A DNA stretch of 46,788 bases from a virus. How positions within the stretch are numbered: the first letter of the stretch is position 1; each line of letters opens with the position of its first letter. The stretch is from IMG/VR virus record IMGVR_UViG_3300040801_003297. One strand, given 5' to 3'. The translations under genes were made by a program, and so were the position numbers. Positions 1 to 46,788 of the stretch are shown piece after piece. Below the pieces are notes generated by a model, which worked only from the letters and a program-made list of their open reading frames with translations, ran no database searches and was not told the DNA's origin.

Positions 1-117
1 TCACGCGTAAACTTCATCTTACGAAACGCGTTGATGAAACGCTTCTGCTTCACCTCCATGAGCCGCTCGAGGTTGATGGGATACTTCATCTCAACGTTCT
101 CGATGTTCTCGTACTCA
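1..117. repeat. Terminal direct repeat (copy 1), identical to 46672..46788; marks circular closure or assembly overlap
   Basis: Base-by-base comparison: tcacgcgtaaacttcatcttacgaaacgcg...cgatgttctcgtactca is present at both window ends. Confidence 0.95.
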
Positions 118-755
118 TAGTCCTTCATGAACGACTCGGCGCAGATCCGGACGTAGTCAAGGCGGTCCTTGTCGACCCGCGCTCGATAGCCGAGGTACTT
201 GTAGACGTCGTTGATGCCGTCCATACCCTGGGACTCGGCAGCATACTGGAACATCAGGCCCATCGAGTGTTCGTATCCCTGCTGGCGCTCTATGAGCTCA
301 GGGACGTTGTCCTCGTTGATGCGGTAGAGGCTCATGACTTCTTCGTTGGTGCCGAAGCCGTCGATGACGAGTGTGTGCCATCGGGTATCGACCGCCATGA
401 ACTCCTCGGTGAATGCCAGTGCGCTCCACGCGTGCATGTCGTGATGGGTCAGGCCGTTGGCTTCGGCATAGACCGCGTTAGGGCACAGCTGGCGGAACAG
501 GCCGTAGTTCCAATACTTGCTCTCGTGATTCATGTCAAAGCCGTTGAACCACGAACTGACGAAGAAGGTCTTGACTTGGCTCAGATCGATGTGCTTACCA
601 ATCTCGATGATTGCCTTATGGGGGAATGACGAATCGCTCTTGATGCGAGTCAGTCGCTCCTCCTCATATCCGATGGGCTCACCCGATCTGGTCTCCACTG
701 CGATGGCGCTCGCGTTGTGGCCCAGGGTTAGCAGCATTGCGTATTCTTTTTTCAT
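1..755 (-). CDS. Carbamoyltransferase (NodU/CmcH/TobZ family), N-terminal part; same gene as 45798..46788, joined across the circular junction (about 542 aa in total)
   Basis: Own translation from ATG at 755 (RBS AGAGGA upstream): MKKEYAMLLTLGHNASAIAVETRSGEPIGYEEERLTRIKSDSSFPHKAIIEI... It is open to base 1 and in frame with ORF 45798..46760 (755-89=666 nt). LGHNxSA and EERxTRxKxDxxFP match the Kae1/ASKHA-like N-domain motifs of this family. Confidence 0.85.
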   Translation of the reverse strand, partial: MKKEYAMLLTLGHNASAIAVETRSGEPIGYEEERLTRIKSDSSFPHKAIIEIGKHIDLSQVKTFFVSSWFNGFDMNHESKYWNYGLFRQLCPNAVYAEANGLTHHDMHAWSALAFTEEFMAVDTRWHTLVIDGFGTNEEVMSLYRINEDNVPELIERQQGYEHSMGLMFQYAAESQGMDGINDVYKYLGYRARVDKDRLDYVRICAESFMKDYEYENIENVEMKYPINLERLMEVKQKRFINAFRKMKFTR

Positions 756-3953: not shown

Positions 3954-4451
3954 ATGGCCATAATCAAGGCACGACCAAAAGTGCGCACTGCAGCAGGCAA
4001 AGCGACTGCTGCACCTCGTAAGAAGGGACCGCGTAAGAAGGGAAAGCAGATGCAGTTCCCTGAGTTCCAAGTGCAGGTCGAGTTCGTCTCGCTCATGCGT
4101 ATGTATTATCCCGACCTCTTGATGTTCGCAGTGCCTAACGGTGGGAAGCGCAGCATCCAAGATGCGAGACGATTCAAAGCCATGGGCGTGCTCGCGGGTG
4201 TGTCAGACATCTGTGTGCTCGAGCCCAATGGCGTGTACGCAGGTCTGTGGATCGAGTTCAAAGCCCCGGGCAAGGTCAAGCAGTTGAGCGCAGACCAGAA
4301 GGAGTTCGGTCAGAAGGTACTCGATCGAGGGTTTGAGTTCATCACGTTCGACAACGCCGTGCTCGCACTGATCTATGTGGAGGGCTACATAGGGGTCGAG
4401 CAGAGCAAGCGAGTAGGCGGTAAGGTTACGACTCAGCCGACGTCAGCGTGA
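3954..4451 (+). CDS. VRR-NUC domain nuclease
   Basis: 165 aa with FAVPNGGKRS...GVLAGVSDICVLEPNG...GLWIEFKAPGK..LSADQKEF, the VRR-NUC PD-(D/E)XK pattern. The Lys-rich N-terminal 32 aa may or may not be translated (alternative ATG at MQFPEF). Confidence 0.8.
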   Translation: MAIIKARPKVRTAAGKATAAPRKKGPRKKGKQMQFPEFQVQVEFVSLMRMYYPDLLMFAVPNGGKRSIQDARRFKAMGVLAGVSDICVLEPNGVYAGLWIEFKAPGKVKQLSADQKEFGQKVLDRGFEFITFDNAVLALIYVEGYIGVEQSKRVGGKVTTQPTSA

Positions 4452-34647: not shown

Positions 34648-35535
34648 TCAGGCGGCGAGTGCCAGTGTCTTCTTAAAGGTCGGTGAGACCAGCGTCTCCC
34701 GGACTCGCTCCTCGCGGCGGAACTTTGCAGCCGCTGCGTTCTCGTGCGACTTCTTATCCACGTCCCAGTGAGTGGAGAAGTGCGTCAGGGTATTGTACAA
34801 CGCCCAACCGGTCGTGCCCATCGTTGTTTTGTGAGTGACCCATGACTCGAAGAGAGCCTTCATCGCCCGAGGCATGTCGTCCTTGTTGCTGGGCAGACCG
34901 AGCCGCTTCGCTTCCGTGTTACGGCTGGCGTGAGCCAACGCGTCGTACGCCTGTGAGTCGGTTACCTTGGCGACGCGCAGCTTTTCGAACCACTCACGTG
35001 ATTGCTCGAATGAGTCCAGCACTCGGGAGATGTGCTTGCCCGCCAGCTTCACATCGAGGCTAGGAACGTGCTTCGACTTGAAGTAGCTGATGTTGTCCCC
35101 CATGACTTGCCCGTTAGAGCAGACGAAGCGGTAACCGCCGGCCTGAACGCTGAACGCCGTTGACCCGTCATACGAGTTCTTAGCGATGATGCGCAGCGCG
35201 GTGGGGTCGTTCTCACCGATTTGGATCTGGTGAGCGGGGAGGATCAGCTGGGCGAATGTGCGTGCGCCTTCGTGGCTGAACTCGGTTTCGACCTTGGCGC
35301 CGTCGAGGTTCAAATCAGAGCGACCGAGGATGTCGACGAATGAAGTGAACACCTCCTCGTTGGTCACGGTCTTGTACTTCTCACCAACCACTGCGATGGG
35401 CTGGCCCGTCTCGGCGGCGACGATTACCTTCTTGCCGGGGACCTGAATGCCGCCCATGGTCGTGAGGCGTTCTTCGCGTACCTTGAAGAAAGAAGACGAG
35501 AGGGATTCGGTGATTGCGTTGAGTGCAGCTGTCAT
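34648..35535 (-). CDS. DUF932-like protein (phage/plasmid family, function unknown)
   Basis: Start at ATG 35535 (MTAALNAITES...). AKNSYDGSTAFSVQAGGYRFVCSNGQVMGD matches the DUF932 core as I remember it. Confidence 0.7.
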   Translation of the reverse strand: MTAALNAITESLSSSFFKVREERLTTMGGIQVPGKKVIVAAETGQPIAVVGEKYKTVTNEEVFTSFVDILGRSDLNLDGAKVETEFSHEGARTFAQLILPAHQIQIGENDPTALRIIAKNSYDGSTAFSVQAGGYRFVCSNGQVMGDNISYFKSKHVPSLDVKLAGKHISRVLDSFEQSREWFEKLRVAKVTDSQAYDALAHASRNTEAKRLGLPSNKDDMPRAMKALFESWVTHKTTMGTTGWALYNTLTHFSTHWDVDKKSHENAAAAKFRREERVRETLVSPTFKKTLALAA

Positions 35536-35592
35536 GTCATAGTCCTTTTGGTTTGGTTCGGATCCGGAGACCATTCCCCGATTCACGAGCCC

Positions 35593-36632: not shown

Positions 36633-36823
36633 AGCGAAATGTCCATGATCGCGTCACGAAGTTCTTCGGTGCGCTCGCCTTTGTTGAACCTGTCGCGACA
36701 CGGCGTGATTGCGAAAGCCATAGCGAACAGTCCTGCCGACCCGGTTTCGGCGTAAGCTTTTTCGCAAGCTTCTAAGCGCTCTTCGACTGCTACCCAGTCT
36801 ATGTTGTGGATGTCGTTTTTCAT
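36629..36823 (-). CDS. Hypothetical 64-aa protein
   Basis: ATG 36823 (MKNDIHNIDW...) forms an ATGA overlap with the SEC-C protein stop. Confidence 0.5.
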   Translation of the reverse strand: MKNDIHNIDWVAVEERLEACEKAYAETGSAGLFAMAFAITPCRDRFNKGERTEELRDAIMDISL

Positions 36824-37044
36824 CAGGCATACCCGCTCCAGCAGCATCGTTTGAACTTTTTACCGGACCCACAGACGCAGGGCTTGTTGCGCATGCTGTT
36901 CTTGCGTCGCTTCGCCCCCATCGGCTGCAGTTCTTCGAACTCGCGTTCGCTTAAGGGGAGCAGTCTCCGGCCCTCGCTTTCGGCGCGGCGCGCAGCTGCG
37001 GCTAATCCTACGCCTTGATGAATCGTTCCTCGTTTTACGTCCAT
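36823..37044 (-). CDS. Small SEC-C motif protein
   Basis: C-terminus KPCVCGSGKKFKRCCW is the SEC-C metal-binding motif; RBS is AGGAG. Confidence 0.6.
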   Translation of the reverse strand: MDVKRGTIHQGVGLAAAARRAESEGRRLLPLSEREFEELQPMGAKRRKNSMRNKPCVCGSGKKFKRCCWSGYA

Positions 37045-37306: not shown

Positions 37307-37480
37307 CTATTTCGCCCTCGGCCAGTAGTCTACCAGAATGTGACCGCACTCTTCGCATTGTTCGGTGCTGACGGTCTCGATGATTCCCATGTGACCGCAC
37401 TCCGGGCATTGCTGGTCCTTATGCGTGACGAGGATTCTGCCCGTGTCGATCGTGCCTGTGTCGTTCTGTCGGTACGTCAT
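37307..37480 (-). CDS. 57-aa zinc-ribbon protein
   Basis: MTYRQNDTGTIDTGRILVTHKDQQCPECGHMGIIETVSTEQCEECGHILVDYWPRAK has CPxC...CxxC. ATGA overlap with the hydroxymethylase stop. The rest of ORF-track entry 37307..38044 is an out-of-frame artefact. Confidence 0.55.
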   Translation of the reverse strand: MTYRQNDTGTIDTGRILVTHKDQQCPECGHMGIIETVSTEQCEECGHILVDYWPRAK

Positions 37481-38274
37481 CCTCTGCGCTCCTGCATCCA
37501 CGCCGCGAAAGGGTACTCTTCGTGACAGTAGTTCGTATCGCCTGTAGTAAGAAACGCGAACTCGACCGGATCGCGTGCTCGCGGCATCGGGATTTCGGTG
37601 TAGCCGTCGACGCCGTCTTGGACCAGCATGCTCAACATCTCGAAGTGCCGCTCGTAGACGTGGAACGAATCGACCTTGTGGGTGTAGGTGCCCATCGTCA
37701 AATCGGGATACGCCCTCTTGCGTAGCGCAGCCAGCACCGCCTCTTGGAGAAGTGAGAAACAGAAGACGTCGTTGGTCATGCCGAAGATCGCATCGTTGCT
37801 TCGCATCGAGACAGACATTTTCAGCGTGCCATTTCGGATCCTGAAGTTGAGACCGTAGGTGCACACCACGTCGGGATTGTCCTCGCGCAAGTGACCGCGG
37901 TTGAGCAGAACCATGCACGCCCGCCGGGAATCGGCATCGCGCATCAGCTCTTCGACGACCCATGCGAACTGACGCTGGCCGAAGATGTATTGCCCGTAGT
38001 TGGAGTTGAATCCCAGGTCCCTGGGATCTTTGATCTTCGCCCACATGGTGGCGTGCTTTTCGATGCTGGTGTCGTAGCGATCACCTCGCAGATACCAGAG
38101 GAACTCTTCGATGCAGTACGCAAGGTTGAGACCGCGAGCACGAAACGAAGTAAGACGCTCGTAGGGTGCCAGCGTGAATTGATAGTCCTCGAGCTCGAGT
38201 ATCGACTGACCTCTGGGTGAGCACGGTCGACCATGTTCAAGCAGATCTTCGTAAACTCTTAAAAAGTTCGACAT
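37477..38274 (-). CDS. ThyA-fold deoxynucleotide hydroxymethylase, T4 gp42-like (predicted dCMP hydroxymethylase)
   Basis: 265 aa. FNSNYGQYIF, ADSRRACMVLLN, VVCTYGLNFRIRNGTLKMSVSMRSNDAIFGMTNDVFCFSLL and FHVYERHF align without gaps to E. coli ThyA [9 protein letters not shown]...[20 protein letters not shown]. Catalytic Cys is kept, His147 becomes Thr, and Asn177 becomes Asp, as in T4 gp42 (MCT... RSNDVVFGFRND). Confidence 0.8.
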   Translation of the reverse strand: MSNFLRVYEDLLEHGRPCSPRGQSILELEDYQFTLAPYERLTSFRARGLNLAYCIEEFLWYLRGDRYDTSIEKHATMWAKIKDPRDLGFNSNYGQYIFGQRQFAWVVEELMRDADSRRACMVLLNRGHLREDNPDVVCTYGLNFRIRNGTLKMSVSMRSNDAIFGMTNDVFCFSLLQEAVLAALRKRAYPDLTMGTYTHKVDSFHVYERHFEMLSMLVQDGVDGYTEIPMPRARDPVEFAFLTTGDTNYCHEEYPFAAWMQERRG

Positions 38275-38767
38275 TGAGCAAGTCCTCTTCGGAATCCTGG
38301 GTGTAATCGTACCGCACGACGTTCGCGTTTCGGTACAGCGTAGAATCGAATGTCGCGTCGTAAAGAATGCGTAGTCTCTCCAAGCTGGCTTCGATGTCAG
38401 CGACGTATTCCGGTGTGTCGTACACCTCGGGCTCGTGCTTGACTTTGTCTAGATCGCCGACGCGACAATAGATGATAAGCGGCGCCACTTCGTCGAGGAG
38501 CTTGCGCTGCGCCTCGTAGTATTCCACATCCGATACGAGTTGCCGGCCGAACACTAGACCGTAGATCGGCTCGCTGATTTGCGTGACGCGATCCTGAATG
38601 CAAGGGAGCTGCGCGCGTTTGAAGCACTCGTCCATGTCGGCACGAACGCCTCCGGGCGTGCCGGCGGATCGACCTATCGCGAAGATCGCCAGCTTAGGGA
38701 ATATGGTTGCAAGCCGAATCGACAATGAGCTCTTGCCCATGCCGTCTGGTCCTTCAAGTATGATCAT
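38237..38767 (-). CDS. P-loop dNMP kinase, thymidylate-kinase-like
   Basis: Start at the internal ATG 38767 (MIILEGPDGMGKSS Walker A, then a DRV..ISEPIYG Tmk-like DR motif). 14-nt overlap with the upstream gene and 38-nt overlap with the hydroxymethylase start. Confidence 0.7.
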   Translation of the reverse strand: MIILEGPDGMGKSSLSIRLATIFPKLAIFAIGRSAGTPGGVRADMDECFKRAQLPCIQDRVTQISEPIYGLVFGRQLVSDVEYYEAQRKLLDEVAPLIIYCRVGDLDKVKHEPEVYDTPEYVADIEASLERLRILYDATFDSTLYRNANVVRYDYTQDSEEDLLNVELFKSLRRSA

Positions 38768-43968: not shown

Positions 43969-45801
43969 TTATGCGGCTTCGGCGATTGCCTCGTCGCACA
44001 TTTCCATGAACTCTTCGTACATGTCCTCCTCGAGTTCAGACACCTTGGCGACGTCAAACTCGCCCAGGATTTCGTTGAGCTCTTCGCGGCTGGTCGCCTT
44101 CAGAGTTTCACTGGCTTTCGCTCGTACTTTATCGAACGGCTTCTCTTCGTCGTCGGCTGAGACTTTGCGACGTGTGCGGCGAGTCGGCTTGGCCTCTTCT
44201 TCCTCTTCATCGTCTTCGGCTTTCTTGGCGGCTCGTCGACGTCGGGTTGGTTTCGGCTCATCCTCTTCCTCCTCGTCTTTCTTGGCACTACGGCGAGTGC
44301 GACGCTTGGGCTTTTCTTCCTCCTCGTCTTCGTCTTTCTTCGCGCTGCGGCGAGTACGGCGCTTCGGCGTTTCCTCTTCTTCCTCTTCGCCTTCGCCGTC
44401 GAACGGAATCTCCGCGTCTACCTCGGGCTCTTTCTTGGCTCGACGTGAGCGACGGGGTTTAGGCTTTTCTTCGGCCTCCTCTGTGGCGTCGTCCAGAAGT
44501 GTATCAATCTCATCGGCCGCGTTACGCAGCATGAGGCTCAGTCGTGTGACAAGTTCGTTTATTTCCATAGTAGGCAACTCGCTCTCTTGTAAAAGTTGGG
44601 ATGTAACACTTTGCTTCTCTAACGCCCGCTTCACCTGATACTCGTCAATCGATCCTCGGATCGTTACGATGTCAGCCTCCACGGTTCCTGTCTGCCCAAT
44701 CCGATGAGCGCGATCGGTTGCTTGGTCAATATCACCCGGCACCCAACTGCTCTCGGCGAGCAAAACTCTTTGTGCTGCGGTCAGTGTCAACCCGACACCT
44801 CCCGCGCTAATTCCTATGACGATAAGTCGGCACTCGTCCTGATTCTGAAATATCCTCTCAGCCTCCTTCTTCTTGGCGTTGGAGACGCCTCCCATAATAC
44901 CGACTACACCTAGGGATGAATACTTTTCGAGAAGCGGCTCGAGCATTTCTGCTCGGTGGTGGCCGAACACGATCAGCTTGTCGTCTCTCGTTGCGAAGTG
45001 GTGATCGATGATCTCGCATACGGCGGGGAACTTCACCATGGCGTGCAGTCGCATCACAGTGGACAACGCCTCGAACGCCACATCAGGCGCGACGTTCTTG
45101 AACTCCTCGAGGTCGTACTCTTTCTCTTCCGGCGGCAACTCCAGATCCAGTGAGAGGACGCGGTAGTGCTTGGGCGGCAATTGCTTGAGCACCTTCTTCT
45201 TGGTGAAGCGGATCATATGCGGCGCGATGATGTCTCGCAACTGATCGAGGTTTGAGGCGCCGTTGACATCGAGCCCGTAGCTGGTTTTTCTGGCGGCACA
45301 GAACCTGTGAACGAAACTGTAGTAGCCGCGGTCGTACGCGCCAATGGCATCGAGAATCGGATAGATCTCAACCGGGCGTGACGGGATCGGCGTGCCTGAC
45401 AGCAGCATCACTTTCTGGATGCACTCGATTTCAGCGATGACCGCCTTCGTGCGCTTGGCGTCGAGGTTCTTCGCGTAGTGGAACTCGTCGACAATGAACG
45501 TCTGCGCCTGAGCGACGTCGAGATCCAGATTGATCAAGAAGTGATAGCTCATAATGAAGACGTCAGCCGCTAAGAACAAATCGGCTTGATCTTTAACGAT
45601 GACCGGCTTGAGCCCACACTCGACAGCTTCGTCGAACCAGTTGTACTGCAAGAAAGCCGGGCAGACAATCGTGGCTGGTGGATCCAGTGCACGCATCGCG
45701 ACCATTGTCTTACCCAACCCCTGCTCAAGGCAGAGGAGGGTAACGTCACGCTTCCGAGCTTGGTCTATCGCGTACTGCTGGAAGCGGTACGGCTTTTTCA
45801 T
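43969..45801 (-). CDS. SNF2-family helicase with a ~200-aa repetitive charged C-terminal extension
   Basis: LEQGLGKT (motif I), IVDEFHYAKN (DExH), LLSGTPIPSRP and QATDRAHRIGQ (motif VI). The tail carries 5 repeats of an acidic run followed by KPKRRTRRSAKK. Confidence 0.85.
   Translation of the reverse strand: MKKPYRFQQYAIDQARKRDVTLLCLEQGLGKTMVAMRALDPPATIVCPAFLQYNWFDEAVECGLKPVIVKDQADLFLAADVFIMSYHFLINLDLDVAQAQTFIVDEFHYAKNLDAKRTKAVIAEIECIQKVMLLSGTPIPSRPVEIYPILDAIGAYDRGYYSFVHRFCAARKTSYGLDVNGASNLDQLRDIIAPHMIRFTKKKVLKQLPPKHYRVLSLDLELPPEEKEYDLEEFKNVAPDVAFEALSTVMRLHAMVKFPAVCEIIDHHFATRDDKLIVFGHHRAEMLEPLLEKYSSLGVVGIMGGVSNAKKKEAERIFQNQDECRLIVIGISAGGVGLTLTAAQRVLLAESSWVPGDIDQATDRAHRIGQTGTVEADIVTIRGSIDEYQVKRALEKQSVTSQLLQESELPTMEINELVTRLSLMLRNAADEIDTLLDDATEEAEEKPKPRRSRRAKKEPEVDAEIPFDGEGEEEEEETPKRRTRRSAKKDEDEEEEKPKRRTRRSAKKDEEEEDEPKPTRRRRAAKKAEDDEEEEEAKPTRRTRRKVSADDEEKPFDKVRAKASETLKATSREELNEILGEFDVAKVSELEEDMYEEFMEMCDEAIAEAA
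44143..44481 (-). repeat. Imperfect tandem coding repeats (~57-60 bp unit) in the SNF2 helicase tail
   Basis: Protein units: EEKPKPRRSRRAKKE / EETPKRRTRRSAKKDEDEEE / EKPKRRTRRSAKKDEEEEDE / PKPTRRRRAAKKAEDDEEEEE / AKPTRRTRRKVSADDEE. Confidence 0.8.
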
Positions 45802-46788
45802 ACAAAGCAGTAAGTCGAGAAGGCCGGCTGCTTAAGCGTATGACGCGTCAGCCATGTCGCGTGCACTCGTCGTAGTCCCGCAATGTCGAAGATGATCGGA
45901 TCACCGTGAAGGTTCAAGCTGGTGTTGATCAAGCACTCGTAGTTGACCATCTCCAGAAGAGCCACCATCGTCGCGTCTGTCATGACGTCGACAATCTGCG
46001 GTCGCCCGGTATAAGCCTCGCCATCCTTGAGCGCAGCGCCTGAGACTTCCTCGCCTTTCCCATGCTGAAACTCATGAGCGCAGACCATGAATCTGTCGGT
46101 GCCGATGACGCTTGTCAGTATCTTCTTGTCGAAGAGCCTGCGCGATGCGCCGTGTGTCATCACAGGAGCCATCGGCATGACCGTGTTGCGGTCGTTAAGG
46201 TCATTGATCGCCTCGACGTGCTTCATCGTGGGAGGCGCGAGAGTAGTCGTCTTGCATAACGCCCTGGGACCGAACTCCATCTCGCCTCGCATGATGTTGA
46301 CGATCTCGCCGTTGTTCAGCTTGTCGGCGATTTCCTTGATGACGTAAGGGAACTCTTTCTGCTTGAAGACTTGGAAGTTCGTCATGCCTAGCTGGTCCAT
46401 CGGTGTGATCGTGTCAGGCCTTGTGCCCCAGCACAGATCGCCGAAGCGGAAACGGCCTTTGCCGGCGTACTCACGATACGCTCCGATCGCTGCGCCTTGG
46501 TCACCAGCCAGAGGCATGACGCTGAAGCGGTCCATGTACTTGGCGATGCGGCCGTTTAGGCGGACATTGTAGAAGCAGCCACCGGCGACCATGAGGTTCG
46601 TGATCTTGTGCTTGGAAATGATGTCGAACACGTACTTCTCGAGGACAAACTGGAGGAACCAGCCCATCTCCTCACGCGTAAACTTCATCTTACGAAACGC
46701 GTTGATGAAACGCTTCTGCTTCACCTCCATGAGCCGCTCGAGGTTGATGGGATACTTCATCTCAACGTTCTCGATGTTCTCGTACTCA
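45798..46788 (-). CDS. Carbamoyltransferase (NodU/CmcH/TobZ family), C-terminal part; continues from 1..755
   Basis: MVAGGCFYNVRLNG, MPLAGDQGAAIGA, GEMEFGPRALCKTTTLAPP...MPMAPVM and SLNLHGDPI are carbamoyltransferase middle and C-domain motifs. The stop overlaps the SNF2 helicase ATG (ATGA). Confidence 0.85.
   Translation of the reverse strand, partial: EYENIENVEMKYPINLERLMEVKQKRFINAFRKMKFTREEMGWFLQFVLEKYVFDIISKHKITNLMVAGGCFYNVRLNGRIAKYMDRFSVMPLAGDQGAAIGAYREYAGKGRFRFGDLCWGTRPDTITPMDQLGMTNFQVFKQKEFPYVIKEIADKLNNGEIVNIMRGEMEFGPRALCKTTTLAPPTMKHVEAINDLNDRNTVMPMAPVMTHGASRRLFDKKILTSVIGTDRFMVCAHEFQHGKGEEVSGAALKDGEAYTGRPQIVDVMTDATMVALLEMVNYECLINTSLNLHGDPIIFDIAGLRRVHATWLTRHTLKQPAFSTYCFV
46672..46788. 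repeat. Terminal direct repeat (copy 2), identical to 1..117
   Basis: Exact 117-bp identity with the window start. Confidence 0.95.

Follow-up and report, generated by a model that had tools for sequence, protein, structure and literature searches.

A predicted deoxycytidylate 5-hydroxymethylase of the ThyA fold in a viral genome encoding a carbamoyltransferase

Phage homologues of thymidylate synthase (TS, ThyA) that carry Asp instead of Asn at position 177 (E. coli numbering, Ec) are known to make three modified forms of deoxycytidylate (dCMP) (bioRxiv 10.1101/2024.12.05.627091; PMC13326640). The enzymes of Xp12 and PaMx74 produce 5-methyl-dCMP (5mdCMP), that of T4 produces 5-hydroxymethyl-dCMP (5hm-dCMP), and those of RB69 and DLP3, which are flavin dependent, produce 5-hydroxy-dCMP. 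Here we analyze a homologue of this kind, encoded at 37477-38274 on the minus strand of IMG/VR virus record IMGVR_UViG_3300040801_003297. The whole stretch of 46,788 nucleotides is referred to as the window. Judged by its residues and its gene neighborhood, the gene product is very probably a deoxycytidylate 5-hydroxymethyltransferase that depends on folate and corresponds in function to T4 gp42.

A signature for dCMP hydroxymethylase (dCH) was described by Park et al. (2019, PMC6400193). In enzymes with this signature the catalytic Cys is preceded, at a distance of three residues, by an Asp, a Ser-x-Tyr motif is present, and the C-terminal tail of TS is missing. The Asp activates the substrate water, and the T4 enzyme with the D145N substitution makes no 5hm-dCMP (PMC6400193). 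Lee et al. (2026, PMC13326640) listed 12 residues within 6 Å of the substrate C5, namely W80, Y94, A142, L143, C146, H147, Q165, S167, C168, D169, G173 and N177. Among these, L143D/E correlates with hydroxymethyl products and D169N marks 5-hydroxy-dCMP synthases (PMC13326640). MilA of Streptomyces rimofaciens (PDB 5b6d, 5jp9) is a CMP 5-hydroxymethylase that serves antibiotic biosynthesis and not DNA precursor synthesis. Lys133 and Ala176 give it its preference for the ribonucleotide, and deoxy-specific enzymes have Arg and Ser instead (Zhao et al., 2016, PMC5175136).

A gene cassette that includes such an enzyme was described by Yang et al. (2021, eLife, PMC8670742). The carbamoyltransferase characterized there converts 5-hydroxymethyl-dC (5hmdC) in DNA, and 5hmdCTP, to 5-carbamoyloxymethyl-dC (5cmdC), and has no activity on 5-methyl-dCTP (5mdCTP) or 5-hydroxymethyl-dUTP (5hmdUTP) (PMC8670742). 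Cytosine-modified metagenome contigs in the same study carry the carbamoyltransferase together with a TS homologue (Asp177, non-His147), PRA-PH, a dCMP deaminase and a MafB19-deaminase.

The window enzyme resembles each of these systems to a different degree. With T4 gp42 (PDB 1b49, 1b5e, 6a9a) it shares the ThyA fold, residues matching C148, D145, S94-x-Y96, D171 and D179, the Arg/Ser deoxyribose site (R123' and S169 in T4) and the lack of the TS tail, and T4 gp42 is the top PDB match of the family profile. The two differ in that identity is only about 26%, Ec142 is Pro instead of Ser, and a C-terminal extension of about 45 residues is found in the window enzyme only. The window phage has a siphovirus-type genome of 46.7 kb and is no T-even phage, and the decoration predicted for it is carbamoylation, compared to glucosylation in T4. 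MilA is about 41% identical in the aligned core and likewise has Asp at Ec143 and Ec177 and Thr at Ec147. Unlike MilA, which combines Lys133/Ala176 with Ile at Ec80, the window enzyme has Arg/Ser and Trp like the deoxy-specific enzymes. Xanthomonas phage Xp15 shares the gene set of the 5-carbamoyloxymethylcytosine (5cmC) cassette, and its gp36 is a ThyA homologue in which residue 177 is Asp and residue 147 is not His; gp36 is 33% identical to the window enzyme. The ThyA homologues of PaMx74 (Pseudomonas) and Xp12 (Xanthomonas) also have Asp at Ec177, lie beside a dCMP-type deaminase gene and are near a MazG-like gene. However, Ec143 is Asn in these enzymes, their folate motif and C-terminal tail resemble those of TS, the Ser-x-Tyr motif is absent, and a dihydrofolate reductase (DHFR) gene is adjacent.

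Fold, family and active site

The 37477-38274 product matches Pfam PF00303 (Thymidylat_synt) with an E value of 5e-18 over profile positions 2-224 of 266. Against the NCBIfam TS equivalogs it scores 21-50 bits, and their cut-offs are 108-427 bits. Because the Pfam match is partial and the equivalog scores are far below the cut-offs, its sequence indicates that it is a ThyA-fold protein and not an ordinary TS. The resemblance to hydroxymethylases is far beyond chance. Single-sequence phmmer searches of the PDB gave 1e-21 for MilA, 3e-13 for T4 dCH and 4e-11 for the best TS. The AlphaFold (AF2) model has a mean predicted local distance difference test score (pLDDT) of 97.4 and a predicted template-modelling (TM) score (pTM) of 0.94. 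In Foldseek searches of the PDB all top matches have the TS fold, with MilA chains the best (E about 1e-20, TMq 0.75-0.81) and the best TS at 2e-16. The best viral structural match, among the BFVD models, is Xp15 gp36, which aligns over the full length with a TM score of 0.88 and a root-mean-square deviation of 2.4 Å.

A hidden Markov model (HMM) was built from 89 family members. Searched against the PDB, it ranked T4 dCH first (2e-35, 125 bits), followed by MilA (2e-30), and the best TS reached 4e-21. Against reference sequences it gave 125 bits for T4, 107 for MilA and 95 for the SPO1 dUMP hydroxymethylase, compared to 63 for E. coli ThyA, 62 for the RB69 5-hydroxy-dCMP synthase and 57 for PaMx74 ThyA. 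A comparison with T4 gp42, the SPO1 enzyme and ThyA had been proposed in an earlier reading of the DNA letters and their translations (the sequence-only reading), which predicted a dCMP hydroxymethylase. The profile agrees with that prediction, placing hydroxymethylases (95-125 bits) above methyl-transferring enzymes (57-63 bits).

Residues were compared in a MAFFT L-INS-i alignment of 130 sequences, including 120 homologues. The E. coli ThyA reference is identical to PDB 1aob, and T4 gp42 (NC_000866 translation), RB69 gp48, SPO1 gp29, PaMx74 ThyA, Xp15 gp36 and others were taken from annotated phage records. A 41-residue segment of the window enzyme, quoted in the sequence-only reading as aligning to E. 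coli ThyA without gaps, is present in the minus-strand product and has no relative gap against ThyA residues 144-184. Counted from both strings, 10 of the 41 positions are identical. The nucleophilic Cys and the Arg, Ser and Asp said to be conserved are found at C138, R158, S159 and D161, equivalent to C146, R166, S167 and D169 in E. coli. The two reported replacements were also recovered, T139 for His147 and D169 for Asn177. HMMER and MAFFT both place Asp, and no other residue, at the Asn177 position. In the phmmer alignment with T4 dCH (PDB 1b49), C138 falls on C148 and D169 on D179. The pattern given there for T4 gp42 (C-T, RSND..FG..ND) is correct: its translation reads MCTNTV...MRSNDVVFGFRND, and that of the window enzyme VCTYGL...MRSNDAIFGMTND.

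The replacement of Asn177 by Asp would by itself indicate only a cytosine substrate. Other residues settle whether methylation or hydroxymethylation of dCMP is predicted. At the near-C5 positions the window enzyme has W, Y, P, D, C, T, M, S, N, D, G and D, and T4 gp42 has W, Y, S, D, C, T, M, S, N, D, G and D. Eleven of the 12 are identical, the exception being Pro for Ser at Ec142. D143, T147, M165, D169 and D177 (E. coli numbering) are kept in all 120 closest homologues.

All three parts of the dCH signature are found. The water-activating Asp is D135, three residues before C138 and invariant in the 120 homologues. The motif (Ser/Thr-x-Tyr; S94 and Y96 in T4) is S91-N92-Y93, and neither S91 nor Y93 varies among 89 aligned sequences. 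The TS tail is lacking, as the PF00303 match stops at profile position 224 of 266 and the C-terminus does not align to the APVAI tail. In its place the enzyme has an extension of its own of about 45 residues with two predicted helices. The ribose site is formed by R117 and S159, as in T4 dCH and TS. Because of this Arg/Ser pair, the substrate should be a deoxynucleotide. As Asp is retained at Ec169 (D161), the enzyme is not expected to be a 5-hydroxy-dCMP synthase. Together with Asp at Ec177, these features (D135, S91-N-Y93, D161, R117/S159 and the missing tail) support the earlier prediction of dCMP as the substrate and 5hm-dCMP as the product, and not a TS reaction.

Carbamoyltransferase and gene cassette

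Our analysis also revealed a carbamoyltransferase gene in the same genome. The two ends of the window are an exact direct repeat of 117 bp, with 1-117 equal to 46672-46788. This repeat marks the window as the complete genome of a phage, 46,671 bp long and either terminally redundant or assembled as a circle. The carbamoyltransferase gene is split by the arbitrary linearization point, and joined across the repeat it forms one open reading frame (ORF) of 542 codons. A truncated protein of 320 residues was considered for the part at the right end and is ruled out, since the frame runs on to the end of the window and joins across the repeat. Along its entire length the 542-residue protein shares 37% identity (E 2e-93) with the characterized 5-hydroxymethylcytosine (5hmC) carbamoyltransferase whose sequence is given in PMC8670742.

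One genome therefore contains a carbamoyltransferase homologue, an Asp177 ThyA homologue and neighbors matching PF01503, PF00383 and PF14437. The carbamoyltransferase, MazG-like protein, kinase, ThyA homologue and deaminase constitute the cassette of Yang et al. (2021), and the predicted DNA base is 5cmC. The sequence-only reading missed the carbamoyltransferase and hence the probable end product. Since a linked homologue of a 5hmC-specific carbamoyltransferase needs a hydroxymethyl acceptor, the gene supports 5hm-dCMP as the product of the window enzyme.

Seven further loci, which represent five distinct phage lineages, have the same cassette in the order carbamoyltransferase, MazG-like, kinase, ThyA homologue and deaminase. 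It is contiguous in Xp15 (gp39 to gp35) and in three metagenomic contigs; the ThyA homologues of these three contigs are 48-54% identical to the window enzyme. In three closely related contigs (L002-L004), whose ThyA homologues are 58% identical, replication genes part the carbamoyltransferase from the other four genes, as they do in the window. The intervening genes in both encode an SNF2 helicase, a nuclease and a single-stranded DNA-binding protein. Acinetobacter phages HHU4, Effie and MD-2021a, like Bacteroides fragilis phages, have a carbamoyltransferase within about 3 kb of a ThyA homologue.

Bacteroides phage BF503P1 has two ThyA-fold genes (locus L007, 5869-6675 and 8748-9428). Both are annotated as dCMP hydroxymethyltransferase and have Asp at Ec143 and Ec177. 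BF503P1_40 has Leu at the positions of Glu58 and Gly173, and may be inactive or divergent.

In the region between primase and carbamoyltransferase, related contigs carry an N6/N4 DNA methyltransferase gene (PF01555; L002 1825-2583). The window has no counterpart at this place; there, the stop codon of the primase overlaps an ATG just ahead of the carbamoyltransferase start.

Competing assignments

The assignment supported by these data is a T4-type 5hm-dCMP synthase inside the 5cmdC cassette known since 2021. Several observations weigh against it. Pairwise tblastn barely separates T4 gp42 (65 bits) from the 5-methylcytosine-type PaMx74 ThyA (60 bits), with E. coli ThyA at 53; for this reason the family profile and the signature positions were used to discriminate. 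The L143 rule is described as a correlation only (PMC13326640). The C-terminal extension might partly seal the folate site. The carbamoyltransferase gene is about 7.5 kb from the ThyA gene in the window and not adjacent. In the literature searched we found no enzyme assay or nucleoside analysis for any ThyA homologue of a carbamoyltransferase cassette, and no test of native 5cmdC in virions.

The best surviving alternative, though an improbable one, is a dCMP methyltransferase of the Xp12/PaMx74 type, in which Asp177 selects dCMP and a hydride from the folate gives the methyl group of 5mdCMP. A true TS in which Asn177 is changed to Asp becomes a dCMP methylase (cited in PMC8670742), and five of seven Asp177-type phage ThyA homologues beside deaminases made 5mdCMP (bioRxiv 10.1101/2024.12.05.627091). 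The window enzyme has a deaminase neighbor too, and the close pairwise score of PaMx74 ThyA points the same way. However, PaMx74 ThyA has Asn three residues before the Cys, the same change as T4 D145N, which abolishes hydroxymethylation. It has Ala-Ala-Tyr in place of Ser-x-Tyr, Pro147 and Leu165, none of which the window enzyme shares. It also keeps a TS-like GLPYD folate motif and a C-terminal tail aligned to APVAI, and the window enzyme has neither. The family profile scores it lowest of the references. The characterized carbamoyltransferase is inactive on 5mdCTP, and its linked homologue needs a hydroxyl. The DHFR gene that adjoins PaMx74 ThyA has no counterpart detected in the window genome. 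In tblastn searches of the complete genome nothing significant was found for DHFR, ThyX, a second ThyA or the T4 beta-glucosyltransferase, although very divergent versions could escape. The failure to find DHFR fits hydroxymethylase chemistry, which regenerates tetrahydrofolate (THF) rather than dihydrofolate (DHF) (PMC6400193).

A dUMP hydroxymethylase of the SPO1 gp29 type, fed by the phage deaminase and making 5-hydroxymethyl-dUMP, is very unlikely. The pairing of a dCMP deaminase with a ThyA-fold hydroxymethylase is the SPO1 arrangement too, and in SPO1 gp29 the Cys is likewise preceded by an Asp at a distance of three residues; its profile score is 95 bits. Against this, the window enzyme and all 120 homologues have Asp at Ec177, where uracil-using enzymes have Asn (PMC5175136). 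For SPO1 gp29 itself we relied on that published alignment and left our own column unused, as a one-residue indel in MAFFT puts Ala in place of the Asn. T4 D179N was crystallized with dTMP bound (PDB 6l18). Residue 147 is Thr, as in T4 and MilA, and Asn in SPO1. The characterized carbamoyltransferase also rejects 5hmdUTP.

We give equally little weight to a flavin-dependent 5-hydroxy-dCMP synthase of the RB69 gp48/DLP3 gp80 type. Like the window enzyme, these proteins combine Asp at Ec177 with an acidic residue at Ec143, MilA is again the best PDB match, and the C5 hydroxyl they generate would in principle suit a carbamoyltransferase. However, the diagnostic D169N is absent. The equivalent residue is Asp in the window enzyme and its 120 homologues, and Asn in RB69 gp48 in the same alignment. 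RB69 gp48 differs further at W80A, G173V and Y209F and scores 62 bits with the family profile. Both the methylase and the 5-hydroxylase appear to be excluded by residues beyond Asn177.

An ordinary TS, the name given to homologues by public sources, and a MilA-like ribonucleotide CMP hydroxymethylase, suggested by MilA being the best single-sequence and structural PDB match, are hardly credible: the NCBIfam scores are far below the cut-offs and Asn177, Leu143, His147 and Gln165 are replaced by D, D, T and M with the tail missing, R117/S159 replaces the Lys133/Ala176 whose A176S/K133R substitution switches MilA to dCMP (PMC5175136), and the gene sits within a phage DNA-replication module.

For the favored 5hm-dCMP synthase, a reaction scheme is proposed by homology to T4 dCH. 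Cys138 would attack C6 of dCMP, and Asp169 would hydrogen-bond cytosine N3/N4, choosing C over U. Glu57 would aid the activation of 5,10-methylene-THF. A water network around Ser91 and Tyr93 would take off the C5 proton, and Asp135 would activate a water that adds to the exocyclic methylene intermediate. The products would be 5hm-dCMP and THF, not DHF. For the subsequent pathway, we infer the steps from the gene set. The adjacent P-loop kinase and the host NDP kinase would convert 5hm-dCMP to the triphosphate, and the MazG-like hydrolase would clear a canonical dNTP that competes with it. The family-A polymerase of the phage would build 5hmC into DNA. The carbamoyltransferase, using carbamoyl phosphate and ATP, would convert 5hmC to 5cmC, either as the dNTP or in DNA. 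The modified base would protect the genome from host nucleases.

Genome context and implications

The plus strand of the genome carries genes for terminase, portal, protease, major capsid, tape measure and tail proteins, typical of a siphovirus-type genome. The minus strand carries a replication and nucleotide-metabolism module, and the ThyA-fold gene is inside it (Table 1). Megablast of a 6-kb region against 50,697 phage records gave no matches, and therefore no close cultured relative was detected at the DNA level.

Table 1. Coordinates of the ThyA-fold gene, its neighbors and the other features discussed (aa, amino acids).
Feature	Position	Strand	Evidence and remarks
Terminal direct repeat	1..117 (identical 46672-46788)	.	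Exact 117-base match
Carbamoyltransferase, N-terminal part	1..755	-	ATG at 755 preceded by AAGAGGA; continues over circular junction into 46671..45798
Deaminase, dCMP/cytidine deaminase-family zinc enzyme, 151 aa	35614..36069	-	PF00383 E 5e-19, PF14437
ThyA-fold enzyme, 265 aa, predicted dCMP hydroxymethylase (5hm-dCMP synthase)	37477..38274	-	PF00303, signature residues, AF2, Foldseek
Key residues of the ThyA-fold enzyme, first half			E57, W78, S91-N-Y93, R117/R118, D135, C138, T139
Key residues of the ThyA-fold enzyme, second half			M157, R158, S159, N160, D161, G165, D169, H205, Y207
P-loop (GPDGMGKSS) nucleotide kinase-like protein, 176 aa, putative dNMP kinase for 5hm-dCMP	38237..38767	-	PHROG 761, P-loop
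MazG-like (PRA-PH) all-alpha NTP pyrophosphohydrolase, 125 aa	38754..39131	-	PF01503 E 5e-6, PHROG 671
Carbamoyltransferase, C-terminal part (YrdC-like Carbam_trans_C and end of Kae1-like N domain)	45798..46788	-	PF16861 E 5e-24, PF02543

The kinase-like protein matches PHROG 761, 'thymidylate kinase', with E 2e-11. Its open frame reaches 38851, but translation probably starts at 38767. Searches of Pfam, NCBIfam and the PDB sequences gave no match for it, and the assignment is drawn only from PHROG 761 and the P-loop. A gene of 161-184 codons occupies the same position in L002-L004, in contigs L013-L015 and in Xp15, and L002 has the identical 14-nucleotide overlap with the MazG-like gene. The MazG-like protein belongs to PHROG 671, 'nucleotide pyrophosphohydrolase', and its best PDB match is DR2231, a MazG-like NTP pyrophosphohydrolase (weak, E 2e-5). 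Its role may be to deplete the pool of a canonical dNTP, dCTP and/or dUTP.

The deaminase matches PHROG 174, 'dCMP deaminase' (3e-36), and the PDB dCMP deaminases 2hvv (3e-16), 4p9c and T4 1vq2. Against the NCBIfam 'anti-phage dCTP deaminase' it scores 62 bits, far under the cut-off of 400. According to the sequence-only reading, the enzyme is kept to supply dUMP to the host TS. This is plausible as one option: T4 Cd has such a role, and the absence of a TS gene from the genome is in keeping with it. In related cassettes, some 'dCMP deaminases' beside Asp177-type ThyA homologues act on 5mdCTP and 5hmdCTP and not on dCMP (bioRxiv 10.1101/2024.12.05.627091). A more speculative possibility, which we consider unlikely, is that the window deaminase acts on 5-hydroxymethyl (or carbamoyloxymethyl) dC nucleotides, so that a part of the modified C would be turned into 5-hydroxymethyl-dU nucleotides. 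The phage would then have 5cmC in place of C and some 5-hydroxymethyluracil, or a derivative of it, in place of T. In a milder version of this idea, complete replacement of C by 5cmC would be demonstrated for the first time in natural phages, those of the ThyA/carbamoyltransferase family.

ThyX (PF02511) is encoded by two related contigs with the same cassette (L001 4093-4797 and L013 1552-2223). As none is found in the window, its phage appears to depend on host dTMP synthesis.

Several additional genes and ORFs were observed. Adjoining the deaminase gene, 34648-35586 (-) encodes a 312-residue DUF932 protein (PF06067; PHROG 1221, function unknown), which is also present in L001 and L002-L004 and may or may not be part of the modification module. 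A 73-codon ORF at 36823-37044 (-) ends in CVCGSGKKFKRCC, which we take to resemble a SEC-C-type metal-binding motif. Between the primase and terminase genes, 3954-4451 (+) encodes a 165-residue protein of PHROG 824 (unknown function). Two alternative-frame ORFs overlap the ThyA-fold gene, 37307-38044 (-, 245 codons) and 37891-38220 (+, 109 codons). Their products would be rich in Arg, Pro and Gly, and they seem to be a side effect of the 57% G+C content, not genes.

Public databases label the 37477-38274 protein and hundreds of its homologues 'thymidylate synthase'. This label hides the likely replacement of cytosine by a hypermodified base in such phages. The finding extends the system described in 2021 and reveals no new system. 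The carbamoyltransferase family is already in use for 5hmC detection, which adds practical interest. A correct assignment predicts phage DNA that resists many restriction enzymes, and probably some further host nucleases, and that performs poorly in standard sequencing or cloning. It also ties a metagenomic genome to cultured phages that carry the cassette, namely Xanthomonas phage Xp15, Acinetobacter phages HHU4, Effie and MD-2021a, and Bacteroides fragilis phages BF486 and BF503, in which native 5cmC could be sought directly.

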